DNA from: Ruditapes philippinarum
Lineage: Eukaryota
Reading direction: 5' to 3'
Length of the DNA stretch: 64,000 nucleotides
Assembly: GCF_026571515.1 (NCBI RefSeq)
Contig: NW_026857783.1
Location: 114,878-178,877 of the forward strand
The position numbers were made by a program, and so were the translations under genes. Position 1 is the first letter of the stretch. Each line of letters opens with the position of its first letter. The notes below the pieces were generated by a model that did not search any database, was not told where the DNA came from, and worked only from the letters and a program-made list of their open reading frames with translations. Below are positions 41,906 to 47,663 of the stretch, piece after piece.

Positions 41906-42376
41906 TCAGATTGACAAAGCGAAATCAGGAACAACATCGCAAGACGGTCGTTTCTTTTCCAAGTCAGTTTCTTTCTTTCCAAATATAGAAACGAGTTTTT
42001 TCGAGACAGTCATCAGAGAGCTCCTCCGCCGTCGTAGTATCGTTGATCTTTGTTGTTGAGTTATTTTTGCATCTCTTAATAATGCCTGATAAGCAATGCT
42101 GATTGGCATAAACACATCAGCTGCCGAAACCTCGTAAAACTGGCAGCCATATTCTAGCGCGAGCTCGTGACCTACATCTACACCAACTTCTCGTCTGTGT
42201 TCGAGATCTCGTTTGTTAGCAAGAAGCAGCATTGGAACGATGAATGGGGATTTCATCTTGTGAAGAGAGTGAATAATGTGTCGAGCTACTTCAAATGTCT
42301 CTTTTACACAAATATCATAAATCACTATAAATCCATCTGCCCATTGTACATGAGACTCGGACGGATTATTTTTTCC
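41906..42376 (-). CDS. RERG: RERG-like Ras-family small GTPase, last exon (GKNNPSESHVQWADGFIVIYDI...LLLANKRDL...YEVSA...), with no CAAX box
   Basis: Acceptor cactgtttcag in phase 0. It carries the G4 motif NKRD and the G5 motif EVSA. ESHVQWADGFIVIYDICVKETFEVA resembles vertebrate RERG ..[22 protein letters not shown]. Stop codon at 41906. The first 37 residues of the supplied 191-aa ORF are intronic (TCAA)n translation. Confidence 0.8.
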   Translation of the reverse strand, partial: GKNNPSESHVQWADGFIVIYDICVKETFEVARHIIHSLHKMKSPFIVPMLLLANKRDLEHRREVGVDVGHELALEYGCQFYEVSAADVFMPISIAYQALLRDAKITQQQRSTILRRRRSSLMTVSKKLVSIFGKKETDLEKKRPSCDVVPDFALSI

Positions 42377-42394
42377 CTGAAACAGTGAATAAGC

Positions 42395-42600
42395 ATGATT
42401 GATTGATTGATTGATTGATTGGTTGGTTGGTTGATTGCTTGCTTGCTTGATTGATTGATTGATTGATTGACTGACTGACACACTGACACACTGATTGGTT
42501 TACTGATTGGTTGATTGATTGATTGAGTGAGTGAGTGAGTGGTTGACTTATTGATTAATTGATTGATTGATTGATTAAGTGAGTGGGTGAGTGAGTGAGT
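42395..42600. repeat. (CAATCAAT)n/(CACT)n compound microsatellite in RERG-like intron 3
   Basis: The region reads gattgattgattggttggttgattgcttgcttg...gagtgagtgagtg. Confidence 0.9.
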
Positions 42601-42973
42601 GATAATATAATTATGATGTTGGTTGTCAGAAAAGAGGCATTGTGCTCACCGTCAAATACATTGCCATTTGAGCAAAATATGAACATGCATTGCCATTTGA
42701 ATAGTAAAAGGACAGTTCATTTACGTTTGTGTAAACCAAAAATGTATTTCCATTTGAGTAAAAAAGAAAAAATATATTGCCGTTGAACGAAACAAAGGGA
42801 TGTAAATACTGACATTTTAGTAAAAATGTAATGCATTACAAAACGGACATATTTTGCTATTTGAATAAAAACGGGAAATATATTGCCCGTTTAAGTAAAT
42901 AAGGAATAAAATGTATTGCAATAGCTTTTTTTACAATTTGAGTAAAACAAGATTAATCAAAAATAAGTCATAC

Positions 42974-43050
42974 ACTTCGACTACATGTATCCAATATTTC
43001 GATATCTGTAAGATAATCTTCTTGTTTGATGCTGGATCTGTACAACAAAT
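42974..43050 (-). CDS. RERG: RERG-like GTPase, exon 3 (D)LLYRSSIKQEDYLTDIEILDTCSRS
   Basis: Acceptor ttttttcag with 2 nt completing the codon from exon 2. Candidate donor AGT|gtatga in phase 0. It matches RERG ..[23 protein letters not shown]. The G3 motif reads DTCSRS instead of DTAGQE. Confidence 0.55.
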
Positions 43051-43881
43051 CTGAAAAAACAACAAGATAAAAAATAAATACAGTCTTGAGTCTTGACTCA
43101 GTATACAAAATAAGTCACCTTTGTGACACACTTTCCATATCCTATTTTATTTGATCAATTGCATGCTTGGTGGTTATATTAACAAATTTTATAATGCAAA
43201 TAAATTTCTCGAATTTTGATTGACTTACAAGCTGTGTCGTATCTGACATATGCACATGCATACAACTAGATTGTTTAAGCCAATATCTCCATTCAAATAT
43301 CATAGTTTCACTTATATGGTTGAAAGTTACACCGCAATGACGACAATATGCTTTATTAAATTACTTTTTTATTTCCAGGGCTGACTTAGTTTAGATTAAA
43401 CTTTTTTTTTAGCTAGATTGCGACACAAGTTATTGCACTTTCTTGTCCGCTTCCTGGAACTAACCAGTACTGGTGTCATCTGAGGAATCATGATCGTTAC
43501 CCGAGTAGGGCTCGAACCCATGTTACCTTCCTTGAGAGACACTGGCGCACTCCGCCGGTTTGATATCCCCAAATTCATAATGGACCGTTAAAAAATGGAC
43601 GCTGGGAAAGTCCATTTAAGAAATTGTGCAGGTTAAGAGTACACAGTACAGGATGGATAGTTCAGATATTCTTGTACAGAATATACATGTACAGAGTTCA
43701 TAGAACATGCTTACGATTGTACCGTAAAAGCGTGATGTACAACCAATACGTAAATTTGTAACCAGGGGTTGAAAAGAAAAATATTTATTTATTAAAGTCT
43801 CTTTCTGACTTTGAATAATAACATGTTGTTAAGTATAAACATAACTATGTAATGAAGTTTTAATATTTAATTTTATATTAC

Positions 43882-44433: not shown

Positions 44434-44664
44434 GAGCCGCGTCATGACAAACCCAACATAATGGGTTTGCGACCAGCATGGATCCAGACCAGCCTGCGCA
44501 TCCGCGCAGTCTGATCAGGATCCATGCTGTTCGCTGTCAGTTTCTCTACTTGTAATAGGATTTGTAAACGATCAGCATGGATCCTGACTGCGCGGATGCG
44601 CAGACTGGTCTGAATCCATACTGGGCGCAAACCCATTATGTTGGTTTTGTCGTGACGCGGCTCA
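44434..44664. mobile_element. Palindromic MITE, copy 4 (in RERG-like intron 1)
   Basis: Same family as 7829-8063. The flanks read tatga|gccgcg...cgcggc|tcata. Confidence 0.85.
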
Positions 44665-45654
44665 TATGTATTTGAAATGAAACTACAACAGATCTATTGT
44701 AAAACATCAATGGTTTTCGTATATCAACATTCTATCAAGTTTACCATCATCTATTGAAAAAATCTCTACAAAAAAAATCTACAAAACATACAAACAAGAA
44801 TTATGTAAACACTTTGTCAACTATTTATATATACTTACAGAATGTTTGCTAATACATATTTTTCTATTTATGAACATAAGCATTTAAGAAAAGAAATAAG
44901 AAAATACAATTAAGTCAAACGGTAAACATTAACTCAATTTTGGTCGACTTATTTAAAAGTCCATAGATCAATATTTGTACAAATCAATTAATCAAGTCAA
45001 TAATAATATTGTGTCCCATGGGGGATACGCAGTTTTGATATGTTGGATTAAAGTTTTAGACAGTCTTAGCTATCACGATAACATTATATAATTACGGAAG
45101 TTAATGAGGTTATAATACTTTATAACAGCTGTCCTATCTCCAACTATCAACGTTCAAGTAGACGCAGAATATCTGAAATGCCGCAGAATATACAAACTTA
45201 TCACTTTTCAAATATGAAATTTTAATTAACGAGCCGGTGTGAAGATATGTTGATGTTTTATGCATGTATATTTTTTTCAACAACTTGAGATAAAGTTTAA
45301 GTTTCGGGCTCTAGATATGTTAGAATACACATGAATTTCTTTTTACAGTTAACTGAGGAAAACAGCACACCAAAAACAACATTTTTTTTTATTTGGGGAT
45401 CGAACTTGCTCATGATAAATTTAGAGAATTTCTAAGCACCAACTGAATAAATAAGTGCCTTTTGATAATTCAAAACATGAATTGATTGCAATCACATTAA
45501 TCACAAAGTTATGTATAGACCTACAATTTATACCCATTACATAGTCATACCACCGTGTTATAAATATATACACAAGTAACACCCGACCCCAAGGAGAACG
45601 GGAAATAAGTGTTTAGCATATTCCGGTTGTCCTCGTATTAGTTACTCAGTTAAT

Positions 45655-45770
45655 ACGTTTTGGTTAGGTTTTATGTTGTTGTTGTTTGTTGTTGTGTGTT
45701 TTTGTTGTTGTTTGTTTGTTTTTTTGTTGTTGTTGTTTTTTTTTTTTTTTTGGGGGGGGGGGGGGGCGTA
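45655..45770. repeat. Low-complexity (TTG/TTTG)n, then T16, then G15 tract
   Basis: gttgttgtttgttgttgtg...tttttttttttttttggggggggggggggg. The supplied ORFs that overlap it are artefacts. Confidence 0.9.
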
Positions 45771-47611
45771 TGTGTGGCTCGGGTGCACAAAAAGAAGCCG
45801 GTGGAGTCCGAAGGGGTTTAACCGTCTAATTGTTAGTAGCAGGCACACGCTGAACGTTTGTCCAAAATCAAAGACTACAATATTCGCACTGCTATTTTAA
45901 AGTCAGCAGGTATGAAAAATTTCGATGTTAGAATTGTTTGATTGTTTATTTTCCTTCTTTACCTTTATTGTGAAAATATACTCCGTTCACCTATTGTTAA
46001 AAAAACATTAAGTTTGTGTGGAATTTTGCAAATATTGCACATTTTTTCTTGAGATTTGTTTTCTTTGGCGCCTTCATATGTGATGTAATTTACTTTTTCC
46101 GGAAACGCAAATCTTTCACCGACTCAATATAACTGAACACGATTCGCAGGTTCCGCCCTGCTATAATCAACGTTACTCATACTCTATCTTATTTTAGCGT
46201 CAATAAAATTACATGTATATAACTGATCAATAAACGACGATTACTTAAGTATCTGATGAAGTGTCTATTTGACAAAAATGGCGACATTATTCTGATAATC
46301 ATTATACTTACAAACACACACATGACCTTACAGCCATTCATAATTGTATTCAGAATAAAAAAAATAATTAATGTACAAAAGACATTTAACATTGGAAGTT
46401 ACAGACAAGGAGATAAATCATTCTTTTACTTTGTAACATACTAAAATATTACCCTTTATCCACAAAATGTGCACTTTTACTATAGTTAAGAAACTTTGTT
46501 ATGATAATTATACAAAGGTTAATACTTTTATTTCCTCCATTTTTTTTTAAAGCAAAACACATTATTTAACAAGTATACAGAGGTACGGTTTGAAATAAGA
46601 CTTAATTGTTCGCCGCAGAACGTTGTAAAAAGTTGGATGTTAGAATGAACCAATGCATTCTATATGCAAATATTGCAGTCTTACTATAAAATATTGAATA
46701 ACTTGTCTATAAACAAAATTTATATCAAACAAAATACAATGTTAATGCCAAATTTGAAGACTGGGTGATTTCGACTCAAAGAAACATAAAATACTTTGAA
46801 TCGTAATGGAATCAAAGATAAAAAACACCCTTCTATATTGTATTGAATACACAAGTTACTATTGCTTCTTAATTGTAAAATGATTTATATCTAACACACA
46901 CAATCAAATTCTTCGGTTTTTATGGGATTATTATCACTTATAAATGAGCACATTTAAGTGTATTTAAATTGATTTTCATTTTGAAAAAGAAAAATTGCCA
47001 AATTCTTTTAAAATGAAAGGCATATGTTTACACTTTTATAATTATGATGTTTCATTGACTGTACATGTTTCTCTTAACAAATTCATTCTTTAATATATAC
47101 TCTTATAATGTATAGCTAATTTACTTTTAGTTTAAATATATAATTTTAAGCTAATTAAAATCACTTAAATTAAGTTCGCCCCTTAGAGATAACAATTCCT
47201 GATGTCCTAAATAAGCAGGTTCGTGACCCGAGCAGGGCTCCAACTCACTAAACCACGATCCTCGGGTTGAGCAGCAGACACCTTAACCACAAAGCACCAG
47301 CTTCTTCATAAAAGCATAGTTTCATAAGCACATTTAATTTAATTAATTAGACTTACATCGAGAAGATCTTTGATAAGCAATGTCAACAATATGAAATCAG
47401 ACTGTAATTTACATTTCTCAAATCATAAAGACAAAGATAATTTCTTATTCTCGTGAACAGACCATACTTGAGAGAAATCAAATCAGATCTTTGAATTTAT
47501 CAATTCCTTTTCCAGGGAACGATTTTATTTCAATTATAATGTTACACGTGCAACAAAATATAAAACACATAATGCAGAAATACTAAAAGGGAAAGTAACC
47601 ACACATCTTAC

Positions 47612-47663
47612 CTGATTTCCCAACATTTTTGTCCCCGAAAACCGCAATACGCAAGGATGTCAT
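47612..47663 (-). CDS. RERG: RERG-like GTPase, first coding exon (MTSLRIAVFGDKNVGKS) with the P-loop (G1) motif
   Basis: On the minus strand: atgacatccttgcgtattgcggttttcggggacaaaaatgttgggaaatcag|gtaagatg. The GxxxxGKS Walker A motif is followed by a consensus donor. The phase-1 junction with exon 2 yields GKS-A-VTVRFLTKRF. Confidence 0.7.

Follow-up and report, generated by a model that had tools for sequence, protein, structure and literature searches.

The RERGL Orthologue of the Clam Ruditapes philippinarum and the Noncanonical G3 Motif of Its Family

The gene described here lies on the minus strand of a 64,000-nucleotide stretch of Ruditapes philippinarum DNA (positions 114,878 to 178,877 of contig NW_026857783.1, NCBI RefSeq assembly GCF_026571515.1), the full length of which is referred to as the window. 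It extends from position 41906 to position 47663 of the window and encodes a Ras-like protein that is, as judged by sequence, the R. philippinarum orthologue of RERGL, an assignment for which the support is moderate and distance-based. The G3 motif of the protein reads DTCSRS, and a noncanonical G3 motif without Gly60 is a family-wide trait that is not peculiar to the clam locus. Considered jointly, the identity of the gene and the reality of its G3 motif leave very little room for doubt. The best explanation overall, and one that can be offered with considerable confidence, is that of a four-exon RERGL orthologue whose product is predicted to be a non-lipidated, nucleotide-binding, and non-cycling member of the Ras family.

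Structure of the Gene and Motifs of the Protein

For the analysis of the gene, the reverse complement of 41700-47800 was read in three frames. Four coding exons were delineated, which when joined yield a coding sequence of 657 nt that specifies 218 amino acid residues and contains no internal stop codons. The introns are all of the GT-AG type with a T-rich polypyrimidine tract, and the exon ends fall in phases 1, 1, and 0. Coding exon 1 (47612..47663; all features of the gene are on the minus strand) specifies MTSLRIAVFGDKNVGKS plus one nucleotide and thus ends in phase 1, with its final G followed by the donor gtaaga. Exon 2 (43882..43938), which is in phase 1 at both ends, encodes AVTVRFLTKRFIGEYNSDI and contributes α1 and switch I. 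The β2 and β3 strands are provided by exon 3 (42974..43050), which specifies DLLYRSSIKQEDYLTDIEILDTCSRS, ends in phase 0, and is followed by the donor gtatga at 42973. Exon 4 (41906..42376) carries the remainder of the protein, GKNNPSE...ALSI, and the stop codon. The intervening introns measure 3673 nt (intron 1, 43939..47611), 831 nt (intron 2, 43051..43881, without Ras-related coding potential), and 597 nt (intron 3, 42377..42973). A four-exon model had been proposed earlier from the letters of the window (hereafter the sequence-only reading), and its coordinates, strand, phases, and translation are borne out by the splice sites and by the open 657-nt frame.

The G1 motif, or P-loop, GDKNVGKS is encoded by exon 1 (47636-47613), and within it the residues equivalent to Gly12 and Gly13 of Ras are a lysine and an asparagine (47630-47625). 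In the switch I region provided by exon 2, the codon equivalent to that of Thr35 is GAT (43888-43886), which specifies Asp35. The G3 motif, D57-T58-C59-S60-R61-S62, is read from the codons GAT ACA TGT AGT CGA AGT located inside exon 3 (42991-42974). Exon 4 supplies the G4 motif NKRD (42217-42206), the G5 motif VSAA (42130-42119), and a conserved basic tail, ILRRRRSSLMTVSKKLVSIFGKK (42040-41972). The C-terminus of the protein, ...PDFALSI (KKRPSCDVVPDFALSI), lacks a CAAX box.

HMMER alignments of the clam protein to RERG and M-Ras are ungapped up to G3, and therefore the clam numbering is the Ras numbering in this region. In these alignments Cys59, Ser60, and Arg61 lie opposite Ala59, Gly60, and Gln61 of DTAGQ, and Asp35 lies opposite the switch I threonine of both RERG and M-Ras. 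The residues of a canonical switch are accordingly replaced at position 35 by aspartate, at position 60 by serine, and at position 61 by arginine; the canonical features for nucleotide binding, namely GDKNVGKS, NKRD, and VSAA, are present. The sequence-only reading had described a DTCSRS motif with serine and arginine in place of Gly60 and Gln61 of Ras, and that description holds, the codons in question being internal to exon 3. It had made no mention of the replacement of the switch I residue Thr35 by Asp35 or of Gly12/Gly13 by lysine and asparagine.

Evidence for the Exon 3 Motif

Apart from the a priori rarity of G3 motifs that do not conform to DxxG, nothing was found in favor of the notion that DTCSRS is an annotation artefact, arising either from a mis-called exon 3 or from a hidden exon that encodes DTAGQE. 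The codons of the motif lie within exon 3, and motifs of a similar class occur in approximately 109 relatives. Of the GT dinucleotides located close to the exon 3 end, that at 42973 is the sole donor that keeps the frame open into exon 4, with the others leading to a stop within a few codons. A six-frame search of the whole window with the pattern D[TSAVPI][AS]G[QEHLTS] returned only two irrelevant matches, at 51070 and 31144, and the pattern [LIVMF][LIVMFW]DxxG had no match on the gene strand. Likewise, a tblastn comparison of RERG and M-Ras with the window revealed the four known exons only and no alternative Ras-like exon. The possibility raised earlier of a DTAGQE exon within the introns was thus addressed by both the six-frame pattern and tblastn, and none is encoded in the gene span.

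No contigs encoding the R. philippinarum protein itself are on record, and the transcript support is provided by complementary DNA (cDNA) from a related clam and by an oyster cDNA compared with its genome. The first of these, a contig from a related venerid clam (L001; Logan SRR22411494), is 968 nt in length and contains an uninterrupted 657-nt coding sequence for a protein that is 91% identical to that of R. philippinarum. Also assigned to its 90% cluster are three RERGL-like isoforms of Mercenaria mercenaria. When aligned with the window, L001 divides into four blocks that meet the exon borders (47612, 43942-43882, 43052-, and 42378-), and the lengths of all four exons are equal in the two species, with exon 3 being 77 nt in each. 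The oyster cDNA (L004) aligns to its own genome (L003) with 97.7-100% identity and displays the same four-exon structure, its coding pieces being 67, 57, and 80 nt plus the terminal exon and its G3 motif, DTCSKKS, being followed directly by an intron. Of the 778 collection blocks in which the oyster protein is indexed, 760 have only contigs shorter than 2 kb, a distribution that is consistent with many transcript assemblies.

Another reading to be considered is that a canonical Ras-like gene is decaying here into a pseudogene, and in this regard a second R. philippinarum copy is tagged "LOW QUALITY PROTEIN" in RefSeq. The 657-nt frame, however, is intact, the splice sites are canonical, the nucleotide-binding residues are invariant, and the orthologues are transcribed in the related clam and in oysters. 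Comparison of the clam gene with L001 gives a nonsynonymous divergence (dN) of 0.063 and a ratio to synonymous divergence (dN/dS) of ~0.016, to be read with the synonymous sites saturated (proportion of synonymous differences, pS, 0.745). Indeed, the two species share DTCSR in spite of synonymous differences in four of the five codons, among them those for serine (AGT vs TCA) and arginine (CGA vs AGA).

Because the junctions, the donor test, the exon search, and dN/dS all agree with the gene model, both mis-annotation and a pseudogene are rejected, each being exceedingly improbable. The sequence-only reading had allowed for a wrongly called donor or acceptor of exon 3, which is refuted by the internal position of the codons, by the stops that follow the other donors, by the related-clam and oyster cDNAs, and by tblastn. 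The pseudogene with in-frame stops that it had named as a refuting case is not borne out, given the intact frame and the low dN/dS.

The second R. philippinarum copy, XP_060564976.1 (P0264), is located on another scaffold, and a single substitution (His99 to Thr) separates it from the protein of the window; a haplotig or a duplication of recent origin is the probable explanation. In Mercenaria mercenaria, two predicted isoforms, X3 (P0266) and X2 (P0267), begin with an alternative first exon (MEVK...) that deletes the entire P-loop. If real, these isoforms would possess a G domain incapable of phosphate binding.

Identity of the Protein

Over 100% of its length, the product of the gene shows 100% identity to the RefSeq entry XP_060597100.1, and it matches the Pfam family Ras (PF00071) with an E-value of 2.6e-25 and a score of 89 bits (cut-off 21.6). 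The best 120 homologues are from bivalves, gastropods, a cephalopod (named RERGL), a chiton, a brachiopod, arthropods, and echinoderms, together with fish RERGL. In a search of 1.84 billion representatives, the close relatives were all noncanonical, with a small number of multi-domain tandem-Ras proteins as exceptions. In that search, canonical DTAGQ/ECSAC sequences were confined to scores of 121 bits or less, and those whose source was looked up are all vertebrate RERG.

A neighbor-joining tree, distance-based only, was constructed from 46 G domains with 300 bootstraps using a numpy implementation. The clam protein falls within an invertebrate clade (91%) whose internal order matches animal phylogeny, with fish RERGL as the sister group of this clade (78%). 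RERG (100%), RASL12 (100%), and a RASL11-type group (87%) are each separate from it. On the basis of its placement with vertebrate RERGL, the clam gene is filed as a RERGL orthologue. The earlier designation of a "RERG-like GTPase" therefore stands insofar as the protein is a Ras-like GTPase of the RERG group, but not if RERG itself is meant, given that the tree places the clam sequence with RERGL. Evolutionary surveys include RERGL among the Ras subfamilies (PMC3141262).

The vertebrate RERGL proteins (fish P0109-P0120, "RERG/RAS-like b") share many features with the clam protein in addition to being its sister clade. The length and order of the G domain are alike, as are FLTKRFIGEY in α1/switch I, the cysteine at Ras-59, the lack of a glycine at Ras-60, and the elements WADGF, NKxD, and E[VL]SAA. 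Both possess the C-terminal RRRxS...FGK(R/K) tail and have no CAAX box. The vertebrate proteins differ in having DPCSQ, with Pro58 and a glutamine at Ras-61 (PMC9810446), where the clam has DTCSR; the identity is ~38%, and the fish tail ends in ...RRKSV rather than in ...PDFALSI.

Among solved structures, the best relatives by sequence are human RERG (PDB 2atv, E=4e-33) and human RASL12 (3c5c), both of which contain bound guanosine diphosphate (GDP). An AlphaFold2 model of the clam protein has a mean predicted local distance difference test score (pLDDT) of 82.6 and a predicted template modeling score (pTM) of 0.75, and its order of secondary structural elements, β1-α1-β2-β3-α2-β4-α3-β5-α4-β6-α5, is that of the standard G-domain topology. 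Switch II is modeled with less confidence (mean pLDDT of 76 for residues 61-70), and the model contains a long, low-confidence C-terminal helix. The top Foldseek matches are RERG, KRAS, and RASL12, with the RERG-GDP and RASL12-GDP structures showing template modeling (TM) scores of ~0.9 when normalized to the target.

Human RERG is the closest solved relative both by sequence and by fold (target-normalized TM of 0.90 and a root-mean-square deviation of 1.9 Å), and it also resembles the clam protein in belonging to a cytosolic, non-lipidated Ras subgroup, a description applied to RERG, RASL11, and RASL12 (PMC2186344). It differs from the clam protein in its canonical switch I (YDPTLE), G3 (DTAGQE), and ECSAC motifs and in forming a separate clade. 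Human RASL12 is a paralogue that likewise lacks Thr35 (Asn), Gly60 (Asp), and Gln61 (Leu) and nonetheless holds GDP in the crystal; it has been treated as a noncanonical GTPase in RASSF interaction studies (PMC11316025). Unlike the clam protein, it has DTADLD as its G3 motif and EVSAC as its G5 motif, it forms a clade of its own, and it resembles the clam protein less closely in sequence (89 bits).

Further invertebrate RERG-like paralogues without DxxGQ were observed in Lingula (P0159, DSCSS), Tubulanus (P0167, DTVSE), Hetaerina (P0206, DTCPK), and Branchiostoma (P0183, DTARK). In six long proteins of 540-1170 residues (P0122, P0147, P0149, P0153, P0166, and P0179), the two halves of a RERGL-type G domain are hundreds of residues apart, the N-terminal half extending to approximately residue 102 and the C-terminal half containing NKRD...EVSAA. 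These represent either gene models with unspliced introns or a real large insertion.

Conservation Across the RERGL Family

Family counts were taken from 109 full-length relatives, ranging from molluscs to fish, in a hidden Markov model alignment in which some arthropod sequences are shifted by one column, such that the values for positions 59-61 are approximate. The sequence GxxxxGK[ST] is found in 108/109, with the remaining one having a gap in the G10 column. NKxD is present in 99 and NMxD in 10, and SAA is present in all 109. In a 32-sequence MAFFT alignment the invariant columns include G10, G15, K16, S17, Y32, Y40, D57, N116, D119, S146, A147, and A148. The P-loop GxxxxGKS, Phe28, Asp57, NKxD, and SAA are under strict purifying selection.

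The residues required for canonical switching show a different pattern. Gly60 is absent from all 109 relatives, in agreement with the MAFFT table except for one glycine there, in P0101 (DTLGS). Gly12 is retained in 3/109, with bulky or charged residues in the other 106, and Thr35 is retained in 16/109. Gln61 occurs in 13/109, which by the motif table correspond to the DPCSQ group of fish RERGL, and position 61 is a lysine or an arginine in 60/109, with Arg/Lys being characteristic of molluscs and echinoderms. Position 59 is a cysteine in 47 and a serine in 40, the remainder comprising three other residues and 19 gaps; the gaps and the three exceptions are attributed to alignment shifts, and in the 32-sequence alignment every member has a cysteine or a serine at this position. 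Across Bilateria, then, conservation is seen in the residues for binding phosphate, Mg2+, and guanine, and Gly12, Thr35, Gly60, and Gln61 are missing or unconstrained.

As listed in the motif table, the G3 sequence is DTC[ST][KR] in molluscs, mostly DTSKC/DTSRC in arthropods, DTCTR/DTCPK in echinoderms, and DPCSQ in fish RERGL, and no DxxGQ is found among the best 120 homologues. The conservation of DTCS in relatives, which the sequence-only reading had put forward as a check, thus takes the form of a clade-wide noncanonical G3 motif, and the DTCSRS type is the ancestral state of the bilaterian RERGL clade. With DTCSRS and EVSAA, the clam protein displays the signature of the RERGL orthogroup, D-x-[C/S]-x without Gly60 plus E[V/L]SAA, and it shares with that group the lack of a lipidation signal and the basic extension RRRxS...FGK. 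Within the tail, R178, R179, F194, and G195 reach a conservation of 90% or more in the 32-sequence alignment.

In several lineages the C-termini resemble class I PDZ ligands (S/T-x-hydrophobic-COOH), with the clam codons lying within 41909-41950 of the window. Such ends are seen in heterodont bivalves (...DFALSI), arthropods (...KKRPSLSI/L), and fish (...RRKSV); those of oysters, scallops, and echinoderms deviate.

The finding is real and is known in kind, the gene being already in RefSeq under the right family name. Since the gene is annotated and the motif is clade-wide and visible in any RERGL alignment, the significance for the window is small. The sole increment is the clade-wide absence of Gly60 combined with the retention of the catalytic glutamine only in vertebrates. 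The RERG, RERGL, and RASL proteins have been set aside in published work for "major sequence deviations" (PMC8163975), and in the literature searched human RERGL appears mostly in expression and marker-gene studies. The RERGL proteins constitute a bilaterian-wide lineage and an uncharacterized candidate for G proteins that bind nucleotide without cycling.

Possible Biochemical Function

In Ras, Gln61 positions the catalytic water, and Gly12 allows entry of the arginine finger of a GTPase-activating protein (GAP). Substitutions at positions 12 and 61 abolish both intrinsic and GAP-stimulated hydrolysis of guanosine triphosphate (GTP). Gly60 and Thr35, the γ-phosphate sensors, are the anchors of the loaded-spring mechanism. 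Taken together, the biochemistry of positions 12, 35, 60, and 61 suggests that RERGL binds nucleotide, would hydrolyze it very slowly if at all, and would not undergo classical switching. A nucleotide-binding, non-cycling G protein is thus the mechanism that is favored here, albeit with restraint. The clam protein would bind GDP/GTP through the conserved P-loop, D57, NKxD, and SAA, would display little or no intrinsic or RasGAP-type GTP hydrolysis, and would not make the canonical loaded-spring transition. It may act as a constitutive and probably GTP-loaded signaling adaptor, in which control by the expression level and by the conserved basic, Ser-rich C-terminal tail (RRRRSS...FGKK) would take the place of a cycle that relies on guanine nucleotide exchange factors (GEFs) as well as GAPs. 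Note that the tail carries RRRRSS sites of the type recognized by basophilic kinases and is not followed by a CAAX box.

Several points weigh against such a mechanism. The loss of hydrolysis is deduced from residue identities, the literature searched yielded nothing on the biochemistry of RERGL beyond lists and exclusions, and the 78% bootstrap support for RERGL orthology is moderate. No literature combining the term pseudoGTPase with RERG was found in the same searches. The side chain at position 35 is an oxygen donor (N, S, T, or D) in 88/109 of the relatives and could still contact Mg2+. Residue 60 contacts the γ-phosphate via its main-chain NH, which is present in serine as well. Rap hydrolyzes GTP without Gln61 by using a residue supplied by its GAP, and by this precedent a dedicated GAP for RERGL is conceivable. 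Finally, vertebrate RERGL retains a glutamine at Ras-61 and has been treated as activatable by the Q62L substitution (PMC9810446).

These same considerations bear on the view that RERGL is a working GTPase switch with noncanonical catalysis, provided either in trans by a dedicated, RapGAP-like GAP or in cis by the basic residue 61 or the polar residue 35. The intact nucleotide-binding motifs, the N/S/T/D residues at position 35, the lysine or arginine at position 61 in more than half of the relatives (60/109), and the use of the glutamine-containing vertebrate protein as a Q62L "active" mutant are all in keeping with it. The complete absence of Gly60 and the bulky or charged residues at position 12 in 106/109 are not. 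Moreover, residues 60-62 vary by phylum (DTCSK, DTSKC, DPCSQ), which argues against one conserved catalytic device. An active switch of this type is possible but is regarded as doubtful.

That RERGL might be a nucleotide-free pseudoGTPase scaffold, retaining the fold only, is brought to mind by the degeneracy of several switch residues and by the existence of a pseudoGTPase domain in AAGAB that neither binds nor hydrolyzes nucleotide (PMC12490416). The invariance or near-invariance of GxxxxGKS, D57, NKxD, and SAA across Bilateria would be hard to explain without nucleotide binding, however, and the paralogue RASL12, with similar deviations, was crystallized with GDP. Such a scaffold is accordingly considered very improbable.

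It is also conceivable, although decidedly unlikely, that in bilaterian RERGL chemistry on the conserved nucleophile at position 59 has taken the place of GTP hydrolysis, leading to covalent switching rather than a GEF/GAP cycle. Residue 59 adjoins the γ-phosphate; a serine at this position might be autophosphorylated, and a cysteine might serve instead as a redox or thiophosphate sensor. Autophosphorylation is observed in Ras A59T and in some GTPases that naturally bear Ser/Thr59 (bioRxiv 10.1101/2021.06.23.449327).

By analogy, a non-cycling RERGL would resemble the atypical GTPases of the Rnd, RhoH, RGK, and RASL12 types. Rnd and RhoH, which are constitutively GTP-bound atypical Rho proteins, provide a functional model for the loss of catalytic residues; in them, expression and phosphorylation govern activity in place of cycling. 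They retain Gly60 and Thr35, such that hydrolysis has been lost and the γ-phosphate sensors have been kept. They differ from the clam protein in belonging to the Rho family and in being lipidated. In "active mutant" screens, both were employed in their wild-type form (PMC9810446; PMC11316025).

[quoted passage not shown] They are distant from it in sequence and possess another signature motif, and their function at the β-subunit of Ca2+ channels has no known link to RERGL. Membership of the clam protein in the RGK group was rejected given its G3 motif of DTCSRS rather than DXWE, and no RGK protein is among the 60 PDB sequence matches listed.

Repeats in the Introns and Features Surrounding the Gene

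Intron 1 contains a palindromic element of ~248 bp (44425-44672) with 87-nt arms that are 91% complementary. Three more copies, which are 79-92% identical, are located at 7825-8072, 8357-8594, and 15394-15639, and the element looks like a family of miniature inverted-repeat transposable elements. A low-complexity tract in the same intron (45668-45770) is T/G-rich and then continues with a T run and a G run of ~15 nt. In intron 3, a microsatellite at 42396-42602 consists of ~45 copies of (TGAT)n running into (TGAG)n and starts ~20 nt from the exon 4 acceptor. Two other intronic stretches, 43430-43570 and 47200-47300, neither of which has a second copy in the window, contain strings that resemble the B box of tRNA genes (GGCTCGAACCC and GGTTCGTGACCC, respectively). 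The window gave no match with either ARAGORN or Rfam, and hence no tRNA in either stretch; these may be remnants of short interspersed nuclear elements.

The remaining features are all on the minus strand, as is the RERGL gene. A degenerate retrotransposon of the type without long terminal repeats occupies 48818-51658, 1.2-4 kb upstream of RERGL exon 1. Its frames are broken, and it includes open reading frames for an endonuclease (Exo_endo_phos, 50990-51658) and a reverse transcriptase (RVT_1, 49697-50989). An open reading frame of 230 residues at 59437-60129 is composed of tandem "SDLQYNIM" and "SSITSCQT" repeats, a translated minisatellite being more probable than a gene. An ankyrin-repeat open reading frame of 560 residues (37997-39679) lies downstream of the RERGL gene, and the other coding pieces are a C2H2 zinc-finger open reading frame (23070-23672) and an exon that encodes a Ninjurin domain (16766-17296; Pfam E=1e-20).

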